From a virus (lineage: Duplodnaviria > Heunggongvirae > Uroviricota > Caudoviricetes): a DNA stretch of 21,181 bases. The notes under the pieces are model-generated. The model had not been told where the DNA came from. It was given only the letters and a program-made list of their open reading frames with translations, and searched no databases. Shown in pieces: positions 1,659-20,415 of this stretch. Position 1 is the first letter of the stretch, and every line of letters starts with the position of its first letter. The stretch is taken from the IMG/VR virus record IMGVR_UViG_2703718854_000005; one strand, 5' to 3'. The position numbers were made by a program, and so were the translations under genes.

Positions 1659-4130
1659 TTAAGAATCAGCCTGACTCGGGATCAGTTTTTGCCAGATAAC
1701 TGAAACGTATTTTGCCTGGTAACGGGCGTCATCAAGTGCATTATGGCGCTCACCTTCGAATGGAATAGCCGTTCTGGCATCGAAGTCTATGGCTTTCCCC
1801 AGCTCAACGATTGTGCGTACATCGCGATCGTTGTAGTAACGCCACGGGCAGGGGATCCCCTGCCGTTCGTATGAACGGCGCAAAATCGTGTTGTCGAAGT
1901 TGGCTCCATTTCCCCAAACCTGAACAAAAAATTCACCGGAGTTTTCGTCGATAAATTCTCGCAATTGTAACAGTGCATCATCTAACGGGATTTCATCGGT
2001 CATAATGGCAGATTGCGCTTCGCGTGATTGCTTAAGCCACCATTTAATGGTGTCCCGATCAATGACTCCGCCAGCAGTTTCCAGATCGATAGTCTTACTA
2101 AATTCCGGTCCCATATCTCCGGTTTGCGGATCGAAAAATATTGCACCTATTGAGATGATCGGGGCATCAGGATTTTTTCCCATGGTTTCAAGGTCGATCA
2201 TTAGATGGTCACACGTCCTGCTGGTGGATGTGATTTCGTGATGACCGTTCACCTTAATTGGGTGATCTGCCGTCTCGCCAGTTTCATTATCGCTATTGTG
2301 ATGCTGATTGCCGCCAGTGTTCTCCTTGTGTGGATGTTCAGCGCCTTCCATTTCCTCCGGATCATCTTCCTGAACTTCAACCTGATACTCTTCATCGAAT
2401 GTTTCTTGGTATGTTGCGTCGCCCATCACCGCGCCACAATCAGGGCAGTTGCCGCCGCCGGTCTGACCGCAGGCGGTGCAGACTTTTTCCACTTCCTGTT
2501 GCGCTACTGGTTCAGGCTGTTTCGTTTCTGGCTCGTTTTGTAACGCATTTGGACTGTTTTGTTCCGCTTTTTGGTAGTTCCGTTCCGATTCATGCTGGTT
2601 CTGGTTCACAGAATCGCGGGTCTGGAGCCCCTTAACCCATTTCGGATCATTCGGGTCACTAATCCCTTCAACAAATTCACCACGTGATGCAGCAAGCAAC
2701 TTATCGGCGTCAGGCTGGCTGATATTGGCTGCCTGCATAATTTTGTTTACTTCGTCAGCGGTAACTTTTATCGGCTCTGGTTGTTCTGAATCTTCAGCGG
2801 TATCTACATTTTGCGGTAAGCCCGTGTATGTGCCATTTTTTCGGGCAAAATATTCTTCTTTTGTGATTTCAGTGGCGCCAGCAGCCAGTGCCTTATCCAG
2901 ACCAGAGAGTTTGTTTGCGCGACCGTATTTTTCTCCGTCCTTATCTGCGAAGAGGAAATAGAACGGCCCCTCACGCTCTACAGATGGTTCAGCTTCCGGC
3001 GCGGTTTCATTTTTTGGGATATCAGATACCTCAGTTTCCACTGCATCAGTTTGTGTTTCTGATGACTGGAGAACATCAACAGTGCCCAGGTCTGTTTCTT
3101 CATTCTCAAACACGCCCTTTGTCGTCAGGTATTCGCAGATATATTTGTTCAGTGCTACGGGATCTTTGTGAATGTCGATCGGACGCTCACGGACAAGGCC
3201 AAAAATAGTTTGGCGGTCGTAGCGAAGGGCATCAGGCTGTTTGCGCATTGATGCCGAGATACGCTTCCAGTCTTCGCGGTCGTTGTCGATAACTTCTTTT
3301 TTTGCCCAGCGATGGATGCTGCCGTCAATGTTTCCGGCATCCACATCACTAGGCCAGAGAGCGTAGGCCAGTTCGTCATCCAGTGTTTTCCATGTCTGCT
3401 TGTATTCGCGATGAATGGCAGCAATGACCGGGCTGATTTTTCCTGTTGAATTTTCAGTGTACTGTTGATTGGCTCTGGCGCGGGCGAGATCAACAACAGA
3501 CGTGTATTTTCCGGTTTCCTTGCGTTCACCTTCGCGACGTTTTTTCCAGATGCGCATCTCTGCCTGAATTTCGGGCCATTTAGCACCAGGAATACATTTA
3601 TGCTTAACCCACCCAATGGCGTGCAACTTAAGCTCCGGATACATGGCGTTAACTTCTGGCATTTTCATCAACGCTTCAACGATATGTCCGTCGAATGTTG
3701 CCATGTCTTCCTGCAACAATTCCTGTGCGCTAATAACCATATCAACGGTGATGTTTTCACATGTGTCGAACTTAACCATGACAGCGTTCTGTACTTCAGG
3801 GGCCAGCTTGTCAAAAGTGACGTTCATCGGATCGGATTCAGTCTCAACCGGGACAAAAGAAGCAGACTCCTCATCCCAGCGGTTTTCCTGCATATATTCA
3901 GCATCCCATGAATCGAGGGCAGGGCGGGGTATGCCAGGTTTATCCTCGCAGACAATAAATTTATAAGCGCAGTCCTGAGCAGCCGGATAATGTTCCAGGA
4001 ATTGCCAGTGAAATTTTGCTCGAGCACGGCGTTCGTCGCCAGCTTCAATGGCTGTGGCTACAGCCACAGCGCCTTCTTCCCTTGTTGCCAGTTCGTCAGG
4101 AATAGCGGCGCAAATAAAGACTTTACTCAT
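1659..4130 (-). CDS. Large phage exonuclease with C-terminal DnaQ-like (DEDDh) 3'-5' exonuclease domain
   Basis: Long ORF; the track start is 4166 but the ATG at 4130 (MSKVF...) has a GAGG RBS. C-terminal motifs: Exo I IDLETMG, Exo II WGNGANFD, Exo III HNALDDARY. Central CxxC...CxxC zinc-ribbon-like segment and acidic low-complexity linker. Confidence 0.8.
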   Translation of the reverse strand: MSKVFICAAIPDELATREEGAVAVATAIEAGDERRARAKFHWQFLEHYPAAQDCAYKFIVCEDKPGIPRPALDSWDAEYMQENRWDEESASFVPVETESDPMNVTFDKLAPEVQNAVMVKFDTCENITVDMVISAQELLQEDMATFDGHIVEALMKMPEVNAMYPELKLHAIGWVKHKCIPGAKWPEIQAEMRIWKKRREGERKETGKYTSVVDLARARANQQYTENSTGKISPVIAAIHREYKQTWKTLDDELAYALWPSDVDAGNIDGSIHRWAKKEVIDNDREDWKRISASMRKQPDALRYDRQTIFGLVRERPIDIHKDPVALNKYICEYLTTKGVFENEETDLGTVDVLQSSETQTDAVETEVSDIPKNETAPEAEPSVEREGPFYFLFADKDGEKYGRANKLSGLDKALAAGATEITKEEYFARKNGTYTGLPQNVDTAEDSEQPEPIKVTADEVNKIMQAANISQPDADKLLAASRGEFVEGISDPNDPKWVKGLQTRDSVNQNQHESERNYQKAEQNSPNALQNEPETKQPEPVAQQEVEKVCTACGQTGGGNCPDCGAVMGDATYQETFDEEYQVEVQEDDPEEMEGAEHPHKENTGGNQHHNSDNETGETADHPIKVNGHHEITSTSRTCDHLMIDLETMGKNPDAPIISIGAIFFDPQTGDMGPEFSKTIDLETAGGVIDRDTIKWWLKQSREAQSAIMTDEIPLDDALLQLREFIDENSGEFFVQVWGNGANFDNTILRRSYERQGIPCPWRYYNDRDVRTIVELGKAIDFDARTAIPFEGERHNALDDARYQAKYVSVIWQKLIPSQADS

Positions 4131-8583: not shown

Positions 8584-8889
8584 ATACAGCGAACTCCATT
8601 GGTTTAGTTGGATATTTACTGTGCTGGACAAAAACGGTTTGCGGGGAAATCTTAGTTAAGTAGAATGACTGCGGGTGCTTGAGGCTATCTGCCTCGGGCA
8701 TGGACACCAACGGCAGATAGAGAAAAGCCCCAGTTAACATTACGCGTCCTGCAAGACGCTTAACATTAATCTGAGGCCAATTTCATGCTAGACACATGTA
8801 GGTTAGCCTCTTACGTGCCGAAAGGCACGGAGAAGCAGGCTATTGTTAACACCAAGCTGTAATGTCCCCTTTGAACCATTCTAAAATGT

Positions 8890-8917: not shown

Positions 8918-10231
8918 ATGATCAAAGAGACTGTTACGATGAGTCATAAGGAACTCCACCGACTTCAGATTATTCAGGAACAAGCTGCGGCACGCATTGG
9001 CATTTCTATTCGGCAGGTTAAACGTCTGGTGCAACGGTATAGAAATGAAGGGCCTTCTGGTCTGGTTTCCCACCGACGTGGAAAGCGTCCTAATAATTCC
9101 TTTTCTACTGAATTCAGAGCAACAGTAATTTCACTCCTCAAAGGCCGTTACGCTGATTTTGGACCTACGTTTGCGTGCGAAAAATTGCGCGAGATACACG
9201 GTTTATCTTTATCCGTTGAAACTCTCAGAAAGTGGATGATAGAAGAGGGGTTATGGCGTGAACGCCGTCGTAAAATTGCCCGTATATATCAACGCCGCAT
9301 GCGACGACCATCTTACGGTGAACTGATCCAGATTGATGGCTCACCTCATGACTGGTTTGAAAATCGAGGCCCCAGATGTACACTGATCGTATTCATTGAT
9401 GATGCCACCAGTGCGTTGATGGCGTTGCGTTTTGTGCCTGCTGAAACAACCCGGGCTTACATGGAAACCCTCCGGGGTTACCTTAATGATCATGGCGTAC
9501 CGCTCGCTCTCTACTCTGATAGACACAGTATATTCAGGGTAAATAACCCAGAGCGGGAAGGTGAGCTGACCCAGTTCACTCGTGCGATAAAGACACTGGG
9601 CATCGAGCCAATCCATGCCAACAGCCCGCAGGCAAAAGGGCGGGTAGAGCGCGCCAATCAGACACTACAGGACAGGCTGGTCAAAGAAATGCGGCTTCAG
9701 AATATCAGTGATATTGAAACAGCAAATGCATGGTTGCCGACCTTTATTGAAGCCTATAACAACCGGTTCGCTACGTCGCCTCGTACTACTGATAATGCTC
9801 ATCTTGATGTGCACCATTCTGAAGAGGAACTGGGTTATATCTTCAGCCTACAGGCGAAGCGCGTTCTGTCTAAAAATCTCACTTTCCAGTACAAAAGCAG
9901 TGCGTTTCAGGTACGCAGTGAGGGCCGGGGATATCGACTTAGGCATTCGGTTGTTACTGTATGCGAGAACTTTGACGGTGAAATTAACGTTCTGTATGAC
10001 GGGAAAGCGCTGGGCTGGGAAAAGTATGTTGATGGCCCGGAGCCTATACCACTGGATGATGAAAAGAGTGTCCATGAACGAGTGGATAATGCCCGTATTG
10101 ATTTACGCTCAAAATACTATGTTAAACCTAAAGCTGACCATCCCTGGCTTACGCGCCGAACGCAAAGTCATCAGCAAGTTAAGCCCCCGAAGTTACCTAA
10201 AAAGAAGCCTGATCCCGATAAAAAAGATTGA
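8918..10231 (+). CDS. DDE transposase with retroviral-integrase-like (rve) core and N-terminal HTH; IS481/ISNCY-like, family tentative
   Basis: 437-aa ORF. N-terminal HTH-like region (IGISIRQVKRLVQRY), rve-type motifs (IQIDGSPHDW ... YSDRHSIF ... HANSPQAKGRVERANQTLQDRL), K-rich C-terminal tail. No istB-like partner downstream. Confidence 0.85.
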   Translation: MIKETVTMSHKELHRLQIIQEQAAARIGISIRQVKRLVQRYRNEGPSGLVSHRRGKRPNNSFSTEFRATVISLLKGRYADFGPTFACEKLREIHGLSLSVETLRKWMIEEGLWRERRRKIARIYQRRMRRPSYGELIQIDGSPHDWFENRGPRCTLIVFIDDATSALMALRFVPAETTRAYMETLRGYLNDHGVPLALYSDRHSIFRVNNPEREGELTQFTRAIKTLGIEPIHANSPQAKGRVERANQTLQDRLVKEMRLQNISDIETANAWLPTFIEAYNNRFATSPRTTDNAHLDVHHSEEELGYIFSLQAKRVLSKNLTFQYKSSAFQVRSEGRGYRLRHSVVTVCENFDGEINVLYDGKALGWEKYVDGPEPIPLDDEKSVHERVDNARIDLRSKYYVKPKADHPWLTRRTQSHQQVKPPKLPKKKPDPDKKD

Positions 10232-11202: not shown

Positions 11203-11508
11203 TTATCGACAGGTCAGGTCACCGCTCACCCGCCGACGAGAAAGCAACACTGACATGCTAAAGCAAAAAATAGATGAATAAGTTGAGTTGTGCATATGTA
11301 GCCTGACCGTCACAAAGTATATGGTGTCTGTACCAGTAAGATGATGGCCGGACTCTTTAAAAACGAGCTGACCTGCACAATACAGGATGGACTTAGCAAT
11401 GGCTGCTCCTGGCACAAAGCGGACAGTGATCACCGTTCTTACGACTACTTTCTGACTTCCTTCGTGACTTGCCCTAAGCATGTTGTAGTGCGATACTTGT
11501 AATGACAT
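11203..11508 (-). CDS. Dubious 101-aa ORF in the position where K-12 annotates ydfV
   Basis: Length and position between relB and flxA fit ydfV as I remember it. Composition is not convincingly protein-like and it is antisense to the relBE promoter region. Confidence 0.2.
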   Translation of the reverse strand: MSLQVSHYNMLRASHEGSQKVVVRTVITVRFVPGAAIAKSILYCAGQLVFKESGHHLTGTDTIYFVTVRLHMHNSTYSSIFCFSMSVLLSRRRVSGDLTCR

Positions 11509-11532
11509 TTGTAATTACAAGAGGTGTAAGAC
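11480..11532 (+). promoter_or_regulatory. relBE promoter/operator (relO-like)
   Basis: Palindromic TTGTAATGACATTTGTAATTACAAG element containing the perfect palindrome TGTAATTACA, immediately upstream of the relB RBS (GAGGTG). Confidence 0.55.
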
Positions 11533-11772
11533 ATGGGTAGCATTAACCTGCGTATTGACGATGAACTTAAAGCGCGTTCTTACGCCGCGCTTGAAAAAAT
11601 GGGTGTAACTCCTTCTGAAGCGCTTCGTCTCATGCTCGAGTATATCGCTGACAATGAACGCTTGCCGTTCAAACAGACACTCCTGAGTGATGAAGATGCT
11701 GAACTTGTGGAGATAGTGAAAGAACGGCTTCGTAATCCTAAGCCAGTACGTGTGACGCTGGATGAACTCTGA
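11533..11772 (+). CDS. relB: RelB antitoxin
   Basis: 79-aa ORF matching RelB as I remember it (MGSINLRIDDELKARSY...RVTLDEL). Stop overlaps the relE start. Confidence 0.9.
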   Translation: MGSINLRIDDELKARSYAALEKMGVTPSEALRLMLEYIADNERLPFKQTLLSDEDAELVEIVKERLRNPKPVRVTLDEL

Positions 11773-12059
11773 TGGCGTATTTTCTGGATTTTGACGAGCG
11801 GGCACTAAAGGAATGGCGAAAGCTGGGCTCGACGGTACGTGAACAGTTGAAAAAGAAGCTGGTTGAAGTACTTGAGTCACCCCGGATTGAAGCAAACAAG
11901 CTCCGTGGTATGCCTGATTGTTACAAGATTAAGCTCCGGTCTTCAGGCTATCGCCTTGTATACCAGGTTATAGACGAGAAAGTTGTCGTTTTCGTGATTT
12001 CTGTTGGGAAAAGAGAACGCTCGGAAGTATATAGCGAGGCGGTCAAACGCATTCTCTGA
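11772..12059 (+). CDS. relE: RelE mRNA interferase toxin
   Basis: 95-aa ORF matching RelE as I remember it (MAYFLDFDERALKEWRKLG...). Overlapping start/stop with relB. Confidence 0.9.
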   Translation: MAYFLDFDERALKEWRKLGSTVREQLKKKLVEVLESPRIEANKLRGMPDCYKIKLRSSGYRLVYQVIDEKVVVFVISVGKRERSEVYSEAVKRIL

Positions 12060-12130
12060 ACCAAAGCATGACATCTCTGTTTCGCACCGAAGGTGACACT
12101 TCTGCTTTGCGTTGACAGGAGAAGCAGGCT

Positions 12131-12286
12131 ATGAAGCAGCAAAAGGCGATGTTAATCGCCCTGATCGTCATCTGTTTAACCGTCATAGTGACGGCACTGG
12201 TAACGAGGAAAGACCTCTGCGAGGTACGAATCCGAACCGGCCAGACGGAGGTCGCTGTCTTCACAGCTTACGAACCTGAGGAGTAA
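12131..12286 (+). CDS. hokD: HokD (RelF) Hok-family membrane toxin
   Basis: Not in the ORF track (51 aa). Manual translation gives MKQQKAMLIALIVICLTVIVTALVTRKDLCEVRIRTGQTEVAVFTAYEPEE. Lies directly downstream of relE. Confidence 0.85.
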   Translation: MKQQKAMLIALIVICLTVIVTALVTRKDLCEVRIRTGQTEVAVFTAYEPEE

Positions 12287-12354
12287 GAGACCCGGCGGGG
12301 GAGAAATCCCTCGCCACCTCTGATGTGGCAGGCATCCTCAACGCACCCGCACTT

Positions 12355-12380
12355 AACCCGCTTCGGCGGGTTTTTGTTTT
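12355..12380 (+). terminator. Intrinsic terminator downstream of hokD
   Basis: Stem CCCGC (12357..12361), loop ttcg, GCGGG (12366..12370), followed by TTTTTGTTTTTATTTT. Confidence 0.6.
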
Positions 12381-12502
12381 TATTTTCAACGCGTTTGAAG
12401 TTCTGGACGGTGCCGGAATAGAATCAAAAATACTTAAGTAGCGCGCAGGGATAAGAGGGATGGTCCCTTAAAGGGGAGAGCTAATTATCCGGAAGGATTC
12501 TG

Positions 12503-12754
12503 ATGATGAACATCGAAGAACTGCGTAAAATTTTTTGTGAAGATGGCCTCTATGCTGTGTGCGTTGAAAATGGAAATCTTGTTAGTCATTACCGCATTAT
12601 GTGTTTGCGAAAGAATGGGGCTGCGTTAATTAATTTTGTGGATGCTCGGGTCACGGACGGATTTATCTTGCGCGAAGGTGAGTTTGTCACTTCATTACAG
12701 GCATTGAAAGAGATCGGAATAAAAGCTGGCTTTTCTGCTTTTTCAGGAGAATAA
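12503..12754 (+). CDS. rem: Rem-like protein (Qin prophage)
   Basis: 83-aa ORF; size and position between hokD and ydfU match rem. Confidence 0.7.
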   Translation: MMNIEELRKIFCEDGLYAVCVENGNLVSHYRIMCLRKNGAALINFVDARVTDGFILREGEFVTSLQALKEIGIKAGFSAFSGE

Positions 12755-12820
12755 ACTCATCTACAATCTTGCGCGGGGCTGAACTCCCGCTGAGTAACAC
12801 CGTGCCACCGGAGAAAACCG

Positions 12821-13099
12821 ATGGCACGCAACGCAAAATATTACAATTCTGATAATTCGCCCGTTCTTGCCTGCACGCACGGGCGGTATTCTCACGCATT
12901 CAAGTCTGAATGGTTCCAGCACCCTCCATGCACTGCAGAACAGGCCGAATGGCTGATTCATTCTTACCGCAGGCGCGGGTTCGAGGTTAAGAAAGCTCTC
13001 AGTCTCGACTATCGGCACTGGATAATCTCTGTCAGGCTGCCTTATTCCGAACGCCCACCACGTGCGTCCCGCACTTTCCAGCAACGGATCTGGAGGTAA
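12821..13099 (+). CDS. Hypothetical 92-aa protein coupled to ydfU
   Basis: ATG with a GGAGA RBS six nt upstream. Its 3' end contains the GGAGG RBS of the downstream ydfU GTG start. Confidence 0.4.
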   Translation: MARNAKYYNSDNSPVLACTHGRYSHAFKSEWFQHPPCTAEQAEWLIHSYRRRGFEVKKALSLDYRHWIISVRLPYSERPPRASRTFQQRIWR

Positions 13100-13100
13100 C

Positions 13101-14150
13101 GTGCGGGTATTACTTAGACCTGTTCTGGTGCCTGAGCTTGGGCTGGTGGTCCTTAAGCCGGGCCGTGAATCCATACAGATATTTCATAATCCTCGAGTGC
13201 TGGTGGAACCGGAACCAAAAAGCATGCGTAATCTGCCATCCGGAGTCGTTCCTGCCGTTCGCCAGCCGCTGGCGGAAGACAAAACATTGCTGCCGTTTTT
13301 TAGTAACGAACGGGTGATTCGTGCTGCTGGCGGCGTTGGCGCATTGTCCGACTGGCTATTACGTCATGTTACATCCTGCCAGTGGCCTAATGGCGATTAC
13401 CATCACACTGAAACAGTCATTCACCGTTATGGTACCGGCGCAATGGTGTTGTGCTGGCACTGCGACAACCAACTGCGTGACCAGACATCGGAATCACTGG
13501 AGCTGCTTGCTCAACAAAATCTGACAGCATGGGTGATTGACGTCATCCGTCACGCAATAAGCGGTACGCAGGAGCGGGAATTATCTTTGGCTGAATTATC
13601 CTGGTGGGCGGTCTGCAATCAGGTGGTGGATGCACTACCTGAGGCTGTATCGCGTCGTTCGCTGGGATTACCAGCGGAAAAAATCTGCTCGGTGTACCGC
13701 GAAAGCGACATCGTACCGGGAGAGCAGACCGCCACCAGCATATTGAAACAACGCACAAAAAATCTTGCACCGTTGCCTTACGCCCACCAGCAACAAAAAT
13801 CACCACAGGAAAAGACGGTGGTAAGCATCACCGTTGATCCAGAGTCTCCGGAATCTTTCATGAAGCTGCCTAAACGTCGCCGCTGGGTTAAGGAGAAATA
13901 CACACGTTGGGTTAAGACACAGCCGTGTGCTTGCTGCGGTATGCCAGCCGACGATCCGCATCATCTGATTGGTCACGGGCAGGGCGGAATGGGAACAAAA
14001 GCACATGATCTCTTTGTGTTGCCTTTGTGCAGAAAGCATCACAACGAGCTGCATACGGATACAGTGGCATTTGAAGATAAGTATGGCTCTCAACTGGAGC
14101 TGATATTTCGTTTTATCGATCGCGCGCTGGCAATTGGCGTACTGGCGTAA
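13101..14150 (+). CDS. ydfU: YdfU-like DUF968 protein with C-terminal HNH/zinc-finger-like motif
   Basis: GTG start at 13101 (GGAGG four nt upstream) gives 349 aa, the K-12 YdfU length as I recall. C-terminal CACCGMPADDPHHLIGHGQGGMGTKAHDLFVLPLCRKHHNELH is Cys/His-rich. Confidence 0.75.
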   Translation: MRVLLRPVLVPELGLVVLKPGRESIQIFHNPRVLVEPEPKSMRNLPSGVVPAVRQPLAEDKTLLPFFSNERVIRAAGGVGALSDWLLRHVTSCQWPNGDYHHTETVIHRYGTGAMVLCWHCDNQLRDQTSESLELLAQQNLTAWVIDVIRHAISGTQERELSLAELSWWAVCNQVVDALPEAVSRRSLGLPAEKICSVYRESDIVPGEQTATSILKQRTKNLAPLPYAHQQQKSPQEKTVVSITVDPESPESFMKLPKRRRWVKEKYTRWVKTQPCACCGMPADDPHHLIGHGQGGMGTKAHDLFVLPLCRKHHNELHTDTVAFEDKYGSQLELIFRFIDRALAIGVLA

Positions 14151-14163
14151 GTGGAGAACGAGC

Positions 14164-14916
14164 ATGAACCTTGAAGCCTTACCAAAATATTACTCCCCAA
14201 AATCTCCAAAATTGAGCGATGACGCTCCAGCGACAGGCACCGGTTGTTTAACAATTACGGATGTAATGGCAGCGCAGGGGATGGTGCAGTCGAAAGCACC
14301 ACTTGGGTTGGCCTTATTTCTGGCAAAAGTTGGTGTTCAGGACCCTCAGTTTGCGATTGAAGGCCTGCTAAATTACGCGATGGCACTGGATAACCCGACA
14401 TTGAACAAATTGAGTGAAGAAATCCGGTTACAGATTATTCCTTACCTCGTGAGTTTTGCCTTTGCTGATTACTCCAGGTCTGCGGCAAGTAAGGCTCGCT
14501 GTGAGCATTGTTCAGGTACGGGATTTTATAATGTATTGCGCGAAGTGGTGAAACACTACAGACGCGGGGAATCTGTAATCAAGGAAGAATGGGTGAAGGA
14601 ACTATGTCAGCATTGCCATGGTAAGGGCGAAGCCAGCACAGCGTGCAGAGGGTGTAAGGGTAAAGGGATTGTTCTGGATGAAAAAAGAACCCGGTTTCAT
14701 GGCGTACCGGTATATAAGATTTGTGGGCGTTGTAATGGAAACCGGTTTAGTCGTTTACCGACCACGCTGGCACGACGTCATGTCCAGAAGCTGGTACCAG
14801 ACCTGACCGATTATCAGTGGTATAAGGGGTATGCGGACGTCATTGGTAAACTGGTAACAAAGTGCTGGCAGGAAGAAGCATACGCGGAAGCGCAATTGAG
14901 GAAGGTGACGAGATAA
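14164..14916 (+). CDS. quuQ: Late-gene antiterminator Q (phage 82/21-type)
   Basis: ATG 14164 with a GGAG RBS gives 250 aa, the quuQ length as I recall. Cys-rich zinc-binding region (CEHCSGTG ... CQHCHGKG ... CRGCKGKG). Immediately followed by a promoter/terminator pair. Confidence 0.8.
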   Translation: MNLEALPKYYSPKSPKLSDDAPATGTGCLTITDVMAAQGMVQSKAPLGLALFLAKVGVQDPQFAIEGLLNYAMALDNPTLNKLSEEIRLQIIPYLVSFAFADYSRSAASKARCEHCSGTGFYNVLREVVKHYRRGESVIKEEWVKELCQHCHGKGEASTACRGCKGKGIVLDEKRTRFHGVPVYKICGRCNGNRFSRLPTTLARRHVQKLVPDLTDYQWYKGYADVIGKLVTKCWQEEAYAEAQLRKVTR

Positions 14917-14947
14917 ATGATTTTTGCTGAAGATGGCGACATGATGT

Positions 14948-14976
14948 TTGCATTTTTCAAAAAATATGGATAAAAT
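14948..14976 (+). promoter_or_regulatory. Candidate late promoter (PR'-like), just downstream of Q
   Basis: TTGCAT (-35, 14948..14953), 17-nt spacer, TAAAAT (-10, 14971..14976). Expected position for PR'/qut. Confidence 0.45.
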
Positions 14977-15021
14977 TTTTTCAACGATGGGCTTTGTATA
15001 CCCGACGTTAAGAAAAAGTAG

Positions 15022-15051
15022 AAAACCCGCTGATGAGCGGGTTTTGTGCTT
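15022..15051 (+). terminator. Intrinsic terminator (tR'-like) downstream of the candidate late promoter
   Basis: AAAACCCGC-tgatga-GCGGGTTTTGTGCTTT: GC-rich stem flanked by an A-run and a T-run, so potentially bidirectional. Confidence 0.6.
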
Positions 15052-15337
15052 TAAATGGGGCAATGGTAATGTTGAATCTCATCCCGGGACTCATGTCTGT
15101 TAACTTATTATTTAGCTGGTGACTTGGTTATTTGCCTGATGTTTAAAATGTTTTCTTCCAGTATAATGTCCCTAAACACAATGAGTCTGCTTATTATATT
15201 ATTAGCAGAGCTATTACGGCCAAAGTACAGCATAAGCTTTTAAAGCCAATCAACCAGTCATCAAGACAGACGGGGTTATTCATAAAAACTCTCCATGTGT
15301 GATCCGATGGGGCCTGAAATTAAAGCTTTAATATAGC

Positions 15338-15550
15338 TCATGAAAGGTAAACATTGGCAGCTGAAGGGCCACGCAGACCATTTATCCGGCAAAATTCCAC
15401 GCGTAATCCGGTGGTAATTTCTTCTGCATCGCGGAGATTGAGCGCTGAAACATGAAGCTGGACATCGATACGACCATCGGATGGGGTGATAAGACCCTTG
15501 CCGCTTTTGCCGTCAAAGGTTTTGACAATTCCTGTCATTTTACGGGACAA
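15338..15550 (-). CDS. cspF: Cold-shock-family protein CspF
   Basis: 70-aa [42 protein letters not shown]...[10 protein letters not shown] matches CspF as I remember it. Confidence 0.85.
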
Positions 15551-15850
15551 AAAAATTCCTTAATACTGATAACTTGGCGCACTATACACACGTTCCTGAA
15601 GAAAGCTATAGTTTTTTGATGGGGTTGAAGATGGCTGGATGTCTAAAATAAACATTGCTTCATATGTTCAACTATGCGTTAATGATTGCGTCGGTTTGAA
15701 GAACAGACGATATACGAAGTAGTTTACTAAAGCAGTTCTCATTTCAGGTGTTATTCACTTATTCCTTCTTTGAGTCTCTCCAATTAAGTACGAAGTCGTT
15801 TCTGTTATGCAAACCATTTATGCCGAAAGGCTCAAGTTAAGGAATGTAGA

Positions 15851-16066
15851 ATGTCAAATAAAATGACTGGTTTAGTAAAATGGTTTAACGCTGATAAAGG
15901 TTTCGGCTTTATTTCTCCTGTTGATGGTAGTAAAGATGTGTTTGTGCATTTTTCTGCGATTCAGAATGATAATTATCGAACCTTATTTGAAGGTCAAAAG
16001 GTTACCTTCTCTATAGAGAGTGGTGCTAAAGGTCCTGCAGCAGCAAATGTCATCATTACTGATTAA
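15851..16066 (+). CDS. cspB: Cold-shock protein CspB
   Basis: 71-aa ORF with the CspA-family RNP motifs (KGFGFI, VFVHF). Matches CspB as I remember it; preceded by a long AT-rich 5' leader. Confidence 0.85.
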
Positions 16067-16177
16067 AATTCATCGCTCGTCTGTATACGATAACGAAGAA
16101 GGCTGATGCCTGAGTAGAGATACGGACAGAGTAGTGAATATTGGATCTCTTTAATAAAAAGTAAGGAGGTCCAATAC

Positions 16178-16213
16178 ATGAAACAATGGCTAGCATATTT
16201 GGCAAAATCTTAA
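16178..16213 (+). other. 11-codon mini-ORF (MKQWLAYLAKS) with a consensus Shine-Dalgarno
   Basis: TAAGGAGGT at 16162..16170, seven nt before ATG 16178. Followed by a CAGCAG/CTGCTG hairpin and an intrinsic terminator. Confidence 0.3.
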
Positions 16214-16347
16214 TCAGGAAAAGTATGCTAACCATTGTGGTGAAGTGCAGGTTTGCTGCATGAATAGTTTTACAGCAGAAGCTAACTGCTGGCATGGCAA
16301 AACAAAGTGCGTAAGTGGATGACTCCCACAAAAAGCACCACAATCTC

Positions 16348-16373
16348 AAACCCGCTCAGGCGGGTTTTTTATT
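16348..16373 (+). terminator. Intrinsic terminator
   Basis: CCCGC-tcag-GCGGG stem followed by TTTTTTATT. Confidence 0.6.
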
Positions 16374-16429
16374 ATCTGCTTTAAATATATTATTAAAATA
16401 TAAAAAATACTTGTTACTAATAAAATCAA

Positions 16430-16600
16430 TCAGGCTACAGCTTTAAGATTTGTCTGGAATACTTTGTTGCAATGAGGGCAGATCAAAAGGGCACCTTTTT
16501 GTACTCTTGAAAAACTGTGTTCTGACTCTTGGGTGCAGTTTGGGCAGGAACATTTAACGAGATAATTACGGCGTGATTTTGAGTTTTTACGTTCTGACAT
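16430..16600 (-). CDS. Small zinc-ribbon protein (CxxC...CxxC), about 56 aa
   Basis: Track ORF 16430..16651; the internal ATG at 16600 has an AGGAAA RBS. Product MSERKNSKSRRNYLVKCSCPNCTQESEHSFSRVQKGALLICPHCNKVFQTNLKAVA has four Cys in two CxxC pairs. Confidence 0.45.
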   Translation of the reverse strand: MSERKNSKSRRNYLVKCSCPNCTQESEHSFSRVQKGALLICPHCNKVFQTNLKAVA

Positions 16601-16819
16601 AGGCTTTTCCTGTATAAATGGCCGTATACAGTACACTAAATATGAAAACATTTCTCGTATTATTATTTTATATATGACTTTCTTTCAAAATAATTACCCA
16701 CATTTTTAATGTGTATGTTTTTTTAGCGCCGTTGAGAACAACGTGTGCTGTCAAAACTACCCCGTAGACTCCGATCTTTTCAAACATATTGCACCATCCG
16801 TGTACATCGGGGTGAGGAT

Positions 16820-17035
16820 ATGAAATCAATGGATAAGTTAACAACAGGTGTTGCCTATGGCACATCGGCGGGTAATGCTGGTTTCTGGGCATTGCAGTTA
16901 CTCGATAAAGTAACTCCGTCACAGTGGGCTGCAATCGGTGTGCTGGGTAGCCTGGTTTTTGGCCTGCTGACGTATCTGACAAATCTTTATTTCAAGATTA
17001 AAGAAGACAGGCGTAAGGCTGCGAGAGGAGAGTAA
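16820..17035 (+). CDS. essQ: Class II holin/pinholin (S21-like)
   Basis: 71 aa from ATG 16820 (GGTGAGGA RBS). Dual-start Met-Lys-Ser-Met motif, TM segment, charged C-terminus RRKAARGE. Confidence 0.85.
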
Positions 17036-17039
17036 TCCA

Positions 17040-17347
17040 ATGACTCAAGACTATGAACTGGTTGTGAAAGGAGTCCGTAATTTTGAGAATAAAGTTACGG
17101 TAACTGTAGCCTTACAGGACAAAGAACGCTTTGACGGTGAAATTTTTGACCTGGATGTCGCCATGGACCGTGTTGAAGGAGCTGCGCTGGAGTTTTATGA
17201 GGCAGCAGCCAGAAGGAGCGTCCGGCAAGTCTTCCTGGAAGTAGCAGAAAAATTGTCAGAAAAAGTTGAGTCTTATCTGCAGCATCAGTACTCCTTTAAG
17301 ATTGAAAATCCTGCCAATAAGCACGAGCGTCCTCATCATAAATATCT

Positions 17348-17351
<4 letters not shown>
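17040..17351 (+). CDS. ydfR: YdfR-like protein between holin and endolysin
   Basis: 103-aa ORF; length and position match ydfR. Stop overlaps the endolysin start (ATGA). Confidence 0.75.
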
Positions 17352-18375
<1,024 letters not shown>

Positions 18376-18737
18376 GGTAATATTAAATCGGAACATTTAC
18401 ATCGCGGAATGTAAAATTTAAATAAAAAGGACTCTTCCATGAGCCAAAATTCCTGAAATCTTAAGGGTAAGATAAAAGGTCTTAATCAGAATGACACGTT
18501 TTATTAATAAATAAAGCTATTCTTTCATTGCTGTGTTTTTCTTTACAAAAGTAATCCTTGCTATGGGTGGTTAATCATGCGTTAATGGTGTTCTGGTTTG
18601 TTACAAATTTATCTGAAGCAGTCATTGTTATAATTTTATTATTTGTACCTCTTGAGATTTCCTTGTTGGTTTTTCTCTCTGATATTTTTTTTCGGACCAT
18701 TCTGCCCAAGGGCTAATTTCTTCAAAAGGTAATAATT

Positions 18738-18950
18738 ATGTCTAACAAAATGACTGGTTTAGTGAAATGGTTTAACCCTGAAAAAGGTTTTGGTTTCATC
18801 ACGCCGAAAGATGGCAGCAAAGATGTGTTTGTCCATTTCTCAGCAATTCAGAGCAACGATTTCAAAACATTAACTGAGAATCAGGAAGTTGAATTTGGTA
18901 TTGAGAACGGACCTAAAGGTCCTGCCGCTGTTCATGTAGTGGCGCTTTGA
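18738..18950 (+). CDS. cspI: Cold-shock protein CspI
   Basis: 70-aa [73 protein letters not shown] matches CspI as I remember it. Confidence 0.85.
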
Positions 18951-19154
18951 GGTAGACAATATTACAAACCATATTCACTTTAGATGCCCGTGTTGTCATG
19001 GTTCCCAGTATAGAACATCATCTTTTGATGTTTCTGACATGAATCCTTTCGGGGCAAAATGTATCTTTTGTAAATCAATGATGATTACATTTGATAATAT
19101 TTCACAATACTTAAATGCCAGCCGTCTGTCGTTGGATTTAAAAAAGTGAAAATG

Positions 19155-19178
19155 AAGGCTCCTTCGGGAGCTTTTTTG
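19155..19178 (+). terminator. Intrinsic terminator
   Basis: GCTCC-ttcg-GGAGC stem followed by TTTTTT. Confidence 0.55.
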
Positions 19179-19221
19179 CTTGGTGTCTATTCGATGGATA
19201 CTCACATACTACGGTAACATC

Positions 19222-19452
19222 ATGAAAAAAATCATAGTTTTTTTTAACTCTGAACCAGCAGTGATAGTGCCAGCGATGACTGGAGTTAACACCATCATGC
19301 GTGAATATCCAAATGGCGAAAAAACACACCTTACTGTAATGGCCGCAGGGTTTCCATCTCTGACCGGAGATCATAAAGTCATTTATGTAGCCGCGGATCG
19401 ACATGTTACTTCAGAAGAAATTCTGGAAGCAGCAATAAGGCTCTTGAGTTGA
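19222..19452 (+). CDS. Hypothetical 76-aa protein
   Basis: Track ORF 19180..19452 with internal ATG at 19222 (MKKIIVFFNSEPAVIVPAMTG...). Weak RBS. No family recognised. Confidence 0.4.
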   Translation: MKKIIVFFNSEPAVIVPAMTGVNTIMREYPNGEKTHLTVMAAGFPSLTGDHKVIYVAADRHVTSEEILEAAIRLLS

Positions 19453-19620
19453 TTTGATGCTATTGCATTGATAATTCAGGAAAATTCTCTTTGTCTGTTT
19501 GTGTAAAATTTAGACTATCGTATGTTGATTATTGCGATGTTTCATCTTATCTTTTACACGTTTGCACCATATAATCGACTTACTGTGTAACTGGAAAGTC
19601 ATAACAGACTAAAAGAGGAA

Positions 19621-19796
19621 ATGATGAATATTGAAAACTTAAAAACAAAAGCAGAAGCAGATATTTCTGAATATATAACAAAAAAAATTATTGAACTTAA
19701 GAAAAAGACCGGGAAAGAAGTTACCAGTATTCAGTTTACCGCACGGGAAAAATGACGGGTCTTGAAAGCTATGATGTCAAGATTAATTTAATCTGA
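19621..19796 (+). pseudogene. gnsB: GnsA/GnsB-family gene disrupted by a -1 frameshift in an A5 run
   Basis: ATG 19621 (AGAGGAA RBS) gives MMNIENLKTKAEADISEYITKKIIELKKKTGKEVTSIQFTAREK, then stop. The +1 frame continues MTGLESYDVKINLI. GnsA/B as I recall reads ...FTAREKMTGLESYDVKI... continuously, so one A is missing in the run at 19748..19752. Confidence 0.6.
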
Positions 19797-19947
19797 TGTA
19801 TTCAATAATAAAATTTATCCATAAACCTCGTTTTTACGGGGTTTTGTTATATTTGAATGGTTCCGAATATCTAAATCACAATTGTTGATGGTTTTTATTA
19901 AACCAATGCAGTCCGGCTCAGGAGTGAGAGAAGCCGGACGTTATGGT

Positions 19948-20358
19948 TTAGCGTGGTAAGATCTGTGTAGTTTTCTGGATGCTTTCAGTAAATAGTAATG
20001 AATTATCAAAGGTATAGTAATATCTTTTTTGTTCGTGGATATTTGTAACCCACCGAAAAACTCCTGCTTTAGCAAGGTTTCTTCTGTATTCCTGAAATGT
20101 GATCTCTCTGGATTTCAGCTTATTAGAGGTCGTTTCTATAAGATGCCTATCCTTTGAAAATTTGACAGACACAATGTTTTTTAGGCCCTTTAATAACACT
20201 GTATTATCATTTTTTAATACAATATGAACATTCTCTGTGGCTAAATAGTAAATGTAATGTGAGACATTGTGACGTTTTAGCTCAGAATAAAACCATTGAT
20301 AGTTTAAATCGTTTCGAACTTTATCAAATATTTGTTTAAAAATGACTACCTGATCCAT
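19948..20358 (-). CDS. ydfO: YdfO-like protein (DUF1398-type)
   Basis: Track ORF extends to 20373; the ATG at 20358 has a GGAAGG RBS and gives 136 aa. Position between gnsB and nohA matches ydfO. Confidence 0.7.
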
Positions 20359-20415
20359 AGATAAACCTTCCATGTGATATGAGGGGGCGTAGTCTGCACG
20401 ATTATCTAAATTGCT

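Follow-up and report, generated by a model that had tools for sequence, protein, structure and literature searches.

The window (the whole 21,181-nt stretch of DNA analysed) carries a gene for a Q antiterminator, followed by a predicted late promoter with a putative pause element, a terminator, four small genes, and the first gene of the lysis block. The features of this region and the evidence for each are as follows:

14164–14916, plus strand: Q antiterminator gene ydfT/quuQ, 250 aa, lambda-Q family (Pfam, structure alignment).
14948–14953, plus strand: -35 hexamer TTGCAT of the predicted promoter pR' (sequence; invariant in six aligned relatives).
14954–14970, plus strand: 17-nt spacer TTTTCAAAAAATATGGA, candidate Q-binding element (conservation, analogy with lambda and phi80).
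14971–14976, plus strand: -10 hexamer TAAAAT of the predicted pR' (TAAGAT in SfV-type relatives).
14983–14991, plus strand: predicted sigma70-dependent pause element, AACGAT plus GGG (9-mer match to lambda pR').
15022–15052, bidirectional: intrinsic terminator tR', stem 15022–15045 followed by GTGCTTT (scan, folds, Term-seq).
15046–16807, no strand: variable cargo slot from tR' to the ribosome-binding site of the holin (blastn homology boundaries).
15194–15283, minus strand: ynfS, small-protein gene, 29 aa (K-12 annotation b4750 via identical sequence).
15338–15574, minus strand: cspF, CDS 15338–15550, start site of its own at 15574 (CSD domain; Kim et al. 2012).
15690–16066, plus strand: cspB, start site 15690, 161-nt cspA-type leader, CDS 15851–16066 (Rfam; Kim et al. 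2012).
16134–16179, plus strand: stem-loop in the cspB 3'UTR (fold of -18.4 kcal/mol; Term-seq).
16348–16373, no strand: hairpin terminator common to cspB (plus) and ynfU (minus), stem 16348–16367 (scan).
16430–16600, minus strand: ynfU, zinc-ribbon small protein (PF23499, E = 6.4e-31; annotation).
16820–17035, plus strand: holin gene essQ, first lysis gene of the late operon (PF04971, E = 4.4e-34).

Downstream of essQ follow ydfR, rrrQ, and rzpQ. The reading of the whole window as K-12 MG1655 DNA was rejected, since the two are collinear only over 11405–20405 (99.92%); within this part, 14100–17100 is identical. In strain cq9, the same prophage runs on into terminase, capsid, and tail genes. 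The window is a fuller Qin-type E. coli prophage.

The Q protein matched Pfam family PF03589 (E = 3.6e-54; cut-off 26.7 bits), which has been equated with the lambda-Q family (PMC9388147), and also matched DnaJ_CXXCXGXG. It aligned over its full length to the solved lambda Q chain 7ubm_Q (E = 4.6e-36). Compared with lambda Q, to which it is 33% identical, it contains an insertion of about 40 aa that brings the number of CxxC motifs to four, whereas lambda has two. On the basis of these alignments, Q is assigned to the lambda-Q family as a member with an extra CxxC pair. The Q protein of phage PhiR42_1 is 100% identical to that of the window, and those of mEp460 and of the Stx2c/Stx2k phages are 93–94% identical.

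The original prediction had placed a near-consensus promoter (TTGCAT-17-TAAAAT) and a strong terminator right after Q, and cspF, cspB with its own leader, and the holin beyond them; each of these elements lies where it had been placed. The -35 hexamer is found 31 nt downstream of the Q stop codon. The description as near-consensus is generous: the -10 hexamer has five of six matches, but in the -35 hexamer only three of six positions agree with TTGACA. The annotated -35 hexamer of phi80 pR' is the identical TTGCAT. A promoter scan of 3.5 kb detected 10 promoter-like sites, compared to 7.8 ± 2.9 in shuffled sequences, and the bare TTGCAT-17-TAAAAT match is not above chance. When the composite promoter was written as a loose regular expression, 29% of shuffled windows matched, which is too permissive for a statistic. 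We nevertheless take the match as non-random, because the 9-mer AACGATGGG follows at lambda spacing and because the block is conserved across phages. This 9-mer begins 6 nt past the -10 hexamer, with the same sequence and the same spacing as in lambda pR', and it is present in a single copy in the whole window (0.15 expected in 21 kb). In lambda, AACGAT represents positions +1 to +6, the GGG is discriminator-like, and the polymerase pauses at +16 (PMC4005639). For the window, we predict the start site at A14983 and a pause near +16, at approximately 14998. In MG1655, the predicted start corresponds to position 1642422 of NC_000913.3, on the minus strand.

In both lambda and phi80, the Q site is located between the -35 and -10 hexamers. 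The corresponding spacer of the window (14954–14970) is invariant in Qin, 2H10, SfV, mEp460, Stx2k, and Ayreon, whose Q genes are 89–100% related, while the flanking positions vary. By analogy, Q may bind to this spacer, the sequence of which is unlike those of lambda and phi80. A genome-wide sigma70-pause dataset has no entry for the pR' locus, and the start-site table of Kim et al. (2012) lists starts for cspB, for cspF, and upstream of ydfU, and none at pR'. Libraries of this type readily lose very short RNAs. Searches of the literature on quuQ/ydfT, on csp genes together with Qin and antitermination, and on cold-shock morons found nothing on the pR' promoter.

Among the six relatives, the DNA from the -35 hexamer to +17 is nearly invariant, and the flanks and the downstream DNA diverge. 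The composite, defined as a -35 hexamer, 16–18 nt, a -10 hexamer, 5–8 nt, an AACGAT-like and a GGG-like motif, and then an intrinsic terminator, was found 5–42 nt past the Q stop codon in Qin, 2H10, SfV, Stx2k, lambda, P22, phi80, SF6, HK225, and Stx2a_EH1910. The block of promoter, pause element, and terminator travels with this Q into phages with quite different downstream cargo. In SfV, mEp460, Ayreon, and Stx2c/Stx2k, Q is part of a block of 89–90% identical DNA that extends through the pause element. As measured by blastn, homology to SfV, mEp460, Stx2k, and Ayreon spans 13833–15045 and ends exactly at the hairpin; in mEp460 and Ayreon it resumes at 16808, 12 nt before the holin gene. The break at 15045 and the resumption at 16808 therefore delimit 15046–16807 as a swappable cargo slot. 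In the window this slot is occupied by ynfS, cspF, cspB, and ynfU, whereas the relatives carry small open reading frames (ORFs) and a DNA methylase, or tRNAs and stx2AB. Phage 2H10 is collinear with the window across 15046–16807 at 94%, and PhiR42_1 matches 14900–15110 at 100%.

The csp cassette was found between this Q and the holin in the isolated phages 2H10, PhiR42_1, PhiR63_1, HannyBb, and Tritos, and, within the phage collection, only with this type of Q. As the order Q-cspF-cspB-holin occurs in isolated phages, it appears to be compatible with lytic growth. The 136-nt stretch from promoter to terminator recurs in 1246 E. coli records with an identity of 99% or more, and it is present in 1628 of the 5426 complete E. 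coli genomes (approximately 30%), including K-12. In the RefSeq records examined, no late promoter, pause element, or terminator was annotated under the 136-nt match.

The tR' hairpin (15022–15045) has the sequence AAAACCCGCT-GATG-AGCGGGTTTT. Its U-tract on the plus strand is short (UUUUGUGC), and CTACTTTTTC comes after the stem in the minus-strand direction. The leader 14983–15053 folds with -30.4 kcal/mol (z = -6.5 compared to shuffled sequences), and the SfV and Ayreon records list the homologous hairpin as a terminator. Published Term-seq data for the identical K-12 sequence, obtained from uninduced cells, revealed a dominant plus-strand 3' end at 15049. This end was present in all three conditions, LB at OD 0.4, LB at OD 2.0, and M63, with scores of 103591, 55368, and 123305, respectively. 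No minus-strand 3' end was recorded near the hairpin. Termination at tR' thus takes place in vivo, and on the strand that had been predicted. Some or all of the RNAs ending at 15049 could originate in the ydfU-Q operon, for which a start was mapped at 12775 (460 reads; Kim et al. 2012). A further plus-strand 3' end is found at 15217 in one Term-seq list; together with the weak -35 hexamer (3/6) and the short U-tract, it makes some Q-independent leak possible. A search of 14900–15350 against Rfam detected no family above threshold. The sub-threshold matches (attenuator leaders, and isrK with 16.6 bits against a threshold of 50) were rejected as generic terminator matches.

The original prediction had also described the gap between the terminator and the holin as carrying cspF and cspB. 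Both are there, but the description was incomplete, as ynfS and ynfU also lie in the gap. Late transcription must indeed cross one sense csp gene and several antisense genes, as had been proposed from the gene layout: ynfS, cspF, and ynfU are all antisense to it. CspF contains a CSD domain (E = 5.6e-22, Pfam). The start sites of cspB and cspF were taken from the supplementary table of Kim et al. (2012) and converted to window coordinates. For cspB, the claim of a leader and a terminator of its own was confirmed. The leader, a thermoregulator of the cspA type, matched Rfam family RF01766 at 15690–16082 with 158.8 bits (gathering score 78), and the cspB start site in Kim et al. (2012) is the first position of this match. 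A second copy of RF01766 is located at 18592–18977 (112.8 bits). The terminator at 16348–16367 has eight pairs followed by TTTTATTA, and a minus-strand Term-seq 3' end was found at 16345. The Term-seq 3' ends with the highest read counts of the locus, 16179 and 16181, lie at the base of the stem-loop in the cspB 3'UTR. A possible ribosome-binding site of an 11-codon ORF (TAAGGAGGT-N7-ATG at 16162–16180) was considered and rejected, because the TAAGGAGGT region is the 3' arm of this stem-loop at the dominant cspB 3' end.

With promoters and terminators of their own, the csp genes constitute autonomous cargo, or 'morons'. The moron concept reportedly goes back to the comparison of the HK97 and HK022 genomes, and lambda bor is an example of an antisense moron within the late operon. 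Here, the junctions at 15045 and 16808 are precise, the starts at 15690 and 15574 belong to the cargo itself, and terminators are present at 16348–16367 and 15022–15045. Like other phage morons, the csp cassette is missing from homologous phages at exactly the same junction, and antisense genes are included. Unlike them, it consists of four genes in both orientations rather than of a single gene.

Taken together, the region very probably represents a late regulatory cassette that depends on Q, belongs to a lambdoid prophage of the Qin type, and is lambda-like in its build. We use the definition of such a cassette given previously: Q, pR', pause element, Q-binding element, terminator, and read-through (PMC9388147). 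The original reading of the promoter and terminator as pR' and tR' is supported by the lambda-family Q, the lambda-spaced pause element, the block conserved across the family with its sharp mosaic boundaries, and the 3' end at 15049. That late transcription depends on Q is suggested by homology. According to this model, sigma70 RNA polymerase would initiate at pR' (-35 at 14948, -10 at 14971), most likely at A14983. Sigma70 would then re-bind, within the initially transcribed bases, to the -10-like AACGAT plus GGG, causing the polymerase to pause near +16. Without Q, the polymerase would stop at tR' and release an RNA of approximately 67 nt with its 3' end at 15049. If present, Q would bind to the promoter spacer and load onto the paused polymerase, which would become terminator-resistant, traverse tR' and the 1.76-kb cargo cassette, including the attenuating leader, 3' hairpin, and terminator of cspB, and reach the genes for holin, endolysin, and spanin; where the prophage is more complete, late transcription would extend to the head and tail genes. 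Thanks to the csp terminators, the csp genes could be expressed while the prophage is silent, and the cold-induced cspB promoter would not drive the holin; during lytic growth, the Q-modified polymerase would override these terminators. Q-modified polymerase is known to ignore terminators across thousands of base pairs (PMC9388147).

As in lambda, a Q of the same Pfam family lies directly upstream of a -35 hexamer, a 17-nt spacer, a -10 hexamer, and AACGATGGG at the same spacing, and an intrinsic terminator precedes lysis genes on the same strand. In contrast to lambda, the spacer differs, and so presumably does the Q site, no TTGACT-like element is found just ahead of the pause element, and the terminator is bidirectional. 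The terminated RNA would be approximately 67 nt long, compared to 194 nt (6S RNA) in lambda, and the gap from Q to S spans 1.9 kb with four cargo genes, compared to about 0.68 kb with orf-64. In phi80 (JX871397), TTGCAT, a 17-nt spacer ending in TGGA, AACGCT GGG, and a terminator approximately 50–80 nt downstream are arranged alike, and in the GenBank record the corresponding elements carry the labels pR', Q site, and terminator. P22 likewise has AACGAT GGA and a terminator at approximately +35 to +65. Both differ from the window in the sequence of the Q site, and neither has annotated genes from terminator to holin. The SfV-type hairpin is effectively unidirectional, since it carries a tract of seven T and lacks an A-tract upstream. 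Stx phages resemble the window in carrying cargo between pR'/tR' and the lysis genes and in the short terminated RNA of the lysogen (PMC7547250). However, stx is transcribed from pR' at lytic induction (PMC7547250), whereas cspB and cspF rely on promoters and terminators of their own.

Since Stx phages make a regulatory small RNA (sRNA) from pR' to tR', and similar short RNAs come from lambda, 21, phi80, 82, and P22 (Sy et al., PMC7547250), we considered whether the RNA of approximately 67 nt (14983–15049) could be a stable trans-acting sRNA, made constitutively from the silent prophage and similar to StxS. Such a function would be in line with the tR' 3' end being one of approximately 1000 dominant ends under three growth conditions and with the presence of the module in 1628 of 5426 complete genomes. 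We consider it unlikely: the 3' tail UUUUGUGC would offer Hfq a poor site, the region from approximately +28 to the hairpin is divergent between versions of the csp type and the SfV type, and Rfam yielded only generic terminator matches below threshold. If it were true, the pR'-tR' RNA would be a functional regulator and not a mere by-product of antitermination control. As a weaker possibility, the phage Csp RNA chaperones, whose genes directly follow tR', may at low temperature lower the efficiency of tR' or of the cspB terminator and cause a leak into the lysis genes; this effect, if true, would couple temperature to that leak.

The hairpin could also merely serve as the 3' terminator of ydfU-Q on the plus strand and of cspF-ynfS on the minus strand, next to a promoter-like relic, decayed or silent in a cryptic prophage, from which no late transcription would start. 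T-tracts flank the hairpin on either side, the scan flagged the minus strand alone, and plus-strand RNA from the mapped start at 12775 could reach the hairpin without pR'. Moreover, no pR' start is listed by Kim et al. (2012), and the Qin prophage of K-12 is defective. Nevertheless, a relic is very unlikely. The promoter-pause block is intact and the promoter invariant across relatives; the 136-nt stretch is conserved at 99% or more in the 1246 E. coli records, and PhiR42_1 is identical over 14900–15110. In addition, no minus-strand 3' end is listed near the hairpin, and a role as terminator of the neighbouring units is compatible with one as tR'. Finally, a chance promoter match in AT-rich intergenic DNA with a coincidental likeness to pR' would fit the number of hexamer pairs and the frequent composite matches in shuffled sequences, but it is highly implausible and appears effectively refuted by the comparative data, given that AACGATGGG stands at lambda spacing after a lambda-family Q and that the composite recurs past Q in nine other phages and is nearly invariant across diverged relatives.

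We therefore retain the reading as a Q-dependent late cassette. The question raised originally, how host cold-shock control and phage late control interact at this locus, loses most of its weight, because self-contained cargo between Q and S, antisense genes included, is common in relatives and because Q-modified polymerase ignores terminators. The arrangement is real but ordinary, as the csp genes are self-contained cargo of a kind often met at this spot. It leaves the current understanding unchallenged, in which cargo between Q and S and processive antitermination by Q already account for the layout. The cassette itself is undescribed, but its kind is well known. Its main value is in annotation, since it provides a late promoter, a pause element, and a terminator for Qin-type prophages. 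The defined tR' explains an 'orphan' Term-seq 3' end, and boundaries are now fixed for the swappable slot that carries stx2 in other phages. Furthermore, the locus offers a clean system in K-12 for studying a Q of the lambda family whose zinc motif is doubled and whose binding site is presumably different.

The original prediction placed a Q-dependent late promoter/terminator pair directly after the antiterminator gene Q (ydfT/quuQ, 14164-14916, plus strand), with about 1.8 kb carrying cspF and cspB before the lysis genes. All named elements (promoter, hairpin, cspF, cspB, leader, terminator and holin) were found where they had been proposed.

Features between Q and the holin gene (window coordinates)
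14948-14953, plus strand: -35 hexamer TTGCAT of the candidate late promoter pR' (sequence)
14971-14976, plus strand: -10 hexamer TAAAAT of pR', 17-nt spacer to the -35 (sequence)
15022-15045: hairpin of the terminator tR', AAAACCCGCT/AGCGGGTTTT (sequence)
15338-15550, minus strand: cspF, between tR' and holin
15690-16082, plus strand: cspA-thermoregulator leader (Rfam, 158.8 bits; threshold 78)
15851-16066, plus strand: cspB, between tR' and holin
16348-16367: cspB terminator hairpin (scan)
16820: start of the P21-type holin gene (profile match)

The description of pR' as near-consensus was overstated for the -35 hexamer, in which only three of six positions match. A plain scan for hexamer pairs returned 10 promoter-like sites compared to 7.8 ± 2.9 in shuffled sequences, i.e. 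not above chance. At 14983-14991, 6 nt beyond the -10, lies AACGATGGG, the sole copy within the window (0.15 expected). The lambda pR' reads TTGACT-17-TAAATT-TGACTC-AACGATGGG, and the Qin-type site thus has the same element at the same distance. It was previously shown that in lambda AACGAT covers +1 to +6, resembles a -10 element and is re-bound by σ70, which gives rise to the +16 pause required by Q, and that the GGG following it is discriminator-like (PMC4005639). Because of this homology, we predict that transcription starts at A14983 and pauses near 14998.

The composite consists of a -35 and a -10 separated by 16-18 nt, then, after another 5-8 nt, an AACGAT-like hexamer with a GGG-like triplet behind it. 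Together with an intrinsic terminator, it is present 5-42 nt past the stop codon of Q in lambda, P22, phi80, SF6, HK225, an Stx2a phage and close Qin relatives. In the GenBank record of phi80, the equivalents are labelled pR', Q-binding site and terminator, and the -35 hexamer is also TTGCAT. Judged by sequence, pR'/tR' qualifies as a lambda-type Q cassette.

The Q gene product falls in Pfam PF03589, which has been equated with the lambda-Q family (PMC9388147), and aligned over its full length with the structure of lambda Q (7ubm, E = 4.6e-36). Unlike lambda Q, it carries an insertion of about 40 residues that doubles the CxxC zinc motif, resulting in four CxxCxGxG motifs. Around these motifs (14524-14760, Q residues ~121-199), this Q also matches the DnaJ central zinc-finger domain (E = 1.3e-08). 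Together, these features suggest that the zinc 'arm' is doubled and that the DNA site of this Q is probably longer than, or different from, the 13-bp Q-binding element of lambda.

Over 14100-17100, the sequence matches the Qin cryptic prophage of E. coli K-12 MG1655 at 100% identity, as it does many other strains; of 5426 complete E. coli genomes, 1608 contain at least 80% of this stretch. Published K-12 data are therefore valid for the pR'/tR' locus; inside the identical stretch, K-12 coordinates (minus strand) were obtained as g = 1657405 - w, where w is the window position. Collinearity with K-12 is confined to 11405-20405 (99.92% identity), and the complete window is not K-12 sequence. Over its full length it is best matched by fuller Qin-type prophages adjoining rspB, e.g. 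in strain cq9, where genes for terminase, portal, capsid and tail follow in the prophage. In a segment missing from K-12, Rfam reported a match to sok, the hok/sok antitoxin RNA (8673-8844, plus strand, 104 bits), adjoining an intact ISNCY-family transposase ORF (8918-10231) and 3.3 kb from the annotated hokD (12131-12286); the same search reported no sok at hokD itself.

The leader 14983-15053 folds with -30.4 kcal/mol (z = -6.5). Term-seq of MG1655 by Adams et al. (2021, Supplementary file 1) places an 'orphan' 3' end, classed as dominant, at K-12 1642356, minus strand, corresponding to w 15049. It was present in all three conditions (LB OD 0.4, LB OD 2.0 and M63; scores 103591, 55368 and 123305), indicating that tR' is functional in vivo in uninduced cells, and on the strand that was predicted. 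Such an end is expected for tR' and for short RNAs like lambda 6S or StxS. The pR'/tR' interpretation is thus supported by AACGATGGG at lambda spacing, a lambda-family Q, recurrence of the composite after Q and use of the terminator in vivo. It is improbable that the abundant 67-nt pR'-tR' RNA acts in trans like StxS.

The Q operon itself could contribute part of the RNA with its 3' end at 15049, since a start site ahead of orf-ydfU-Q was mapped at 12775 (460 reads, -10 TACAAT; Kim 2012); the same start-site table has no entry at pR'. In Term-seq, a dominant plus-strand 3' end lies at 12833, 58 nt past the 12775 start, in three conditions, directly after a hairpin that includes the ATG of the first ORF. 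The region 12762-12833 (plus strand) may be an attenuation point through which Q is kept off while the prophage is silent.

The tR' hairpin is bidirectional. Its minus-strand side is followed by CTACTTTTTC, which would suit termination of the convergent cspF-ynfS unit; the Term-seq lists contain no minus-strand 3' end at this hairpin. In contrast to the csp-type tR', the SfV-type hairpin lacks the upstream A-tract, suggesting that tR' was adapted to this convergent unit. Beyond tR', a perfect TATAAT (15162-15167, plus strand) and a small hairpin (15186-15209, plus strand) precede a Term-seq 3' end at 15217 found in one condition. This signal could reflect leakage past tR', or else a tiny transcript of its own that runs antisense to ynfS.

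When compared by blastn with SfV, mEp460, Ayreon and an Stx2k phage, the window shares one block of about 89-90% identity, from 13833 (within ydfU) to 15045. The block spans Q, the promoter and the pause element, is almost invariant from -35 to +17, and its last base is the end of the hairpin. In mEp460 and Ayreon, homology restarts at 16808, 12 nt ahead of the holin start codon; 15046-16807 is therefore a cargo slot. It holds small ORFs and a methylase in SfV, mEp460 and Ayreon (with extra terminators annotated in SfV and Ayreon), and ORFs, three tRNAs and stx2AB in the Stx2k phage. SF6, HK225 and Erwinia phage 59 likewise have antisense ORFs immediately past tR'.

The cspF-cspB cassette is also carried by phages 2H10, PhiR42_1, PhiR63_1 and HannyBb. 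As deposited, isolated phages have the same layout, it seems compatible with lytic growth. Phage Tritos carries the cassette with a clean deletion of 258 bp (window 15090-15347), by which ynfS and the 3' end of cspF are lost while cspB is kept, indicating that cspF and ynfS are dispensable for Tritos. In HannyBb (positions 1750-3700) and PhiR63_1, the last ~58 nt of Q plus pR' to +17 are duplicated on either side of a 1.55-kb insert, giving two tandem late-promoter copies with tR' only after the second. The insert is mainly non-coding, with one antisense 94-aa ORF bearing a C-terminal membrane anchor.

Antisense cspF, and sense cspB with its own leader and terminator, lie before the holin gene as anticipated; the gap contains two additional antisense genes, ynfS and ynfU. 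Start sites were mapped at 15690 for cspB and 15574 for cspF (Kim 2012). Term-seq revealed a plus-strand 3' end inside the cspB leader (15771), BCM-sensitive according to the authors' table. The most abundant 3' ends of the locus, at w 16179/16181 (K-12 1641226/1641224; scores up to 2.46 million), lie 113-115 nt past the cspB stop codon at the base of an 18-bp 3'UTR stem-loop (16134-16181 region) without a U-tract. They resemble the end of a cspB mRNA that has been processed and is protected by the hairpin, far ahead of the 16348 terminator. The perfect TAAGGAGGT with an ATG behind it was rejected as an obvious ribosome-binding site: it is the 3' arm of this stem. The downstream hairpin at 16348-16367 is bidirectional (16345-16373) and common to cspB (plus strand) and ynfU (minus strand), whose 3' end lies at w 16345. 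[quoted passage not shown]

Given their own starts, 3' ends and hairpins, this anatomy implies that the csp genes are expressed autonomously in the silent prophage, and two or three barriers would shield the holin gene against the cspB promoter, which is cold-inducible. Q-modified polymerase disregards pause and termination sites across thousands of base pairs (PMC9388147) and should therefore traverse the whole cargo cassette. It would collide head-on with transcription of cspF, ynfS and ynfU, so that interference is to be expected. Our literature search found no paper on the pR' promoter of Qin, and the RefSeq records examined carry no annotation beneath it; the Qin-type pR' cassette is hence an undescribed example of a textbook arrangement. 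The coexistence of csp and late control needs no new mechanism.
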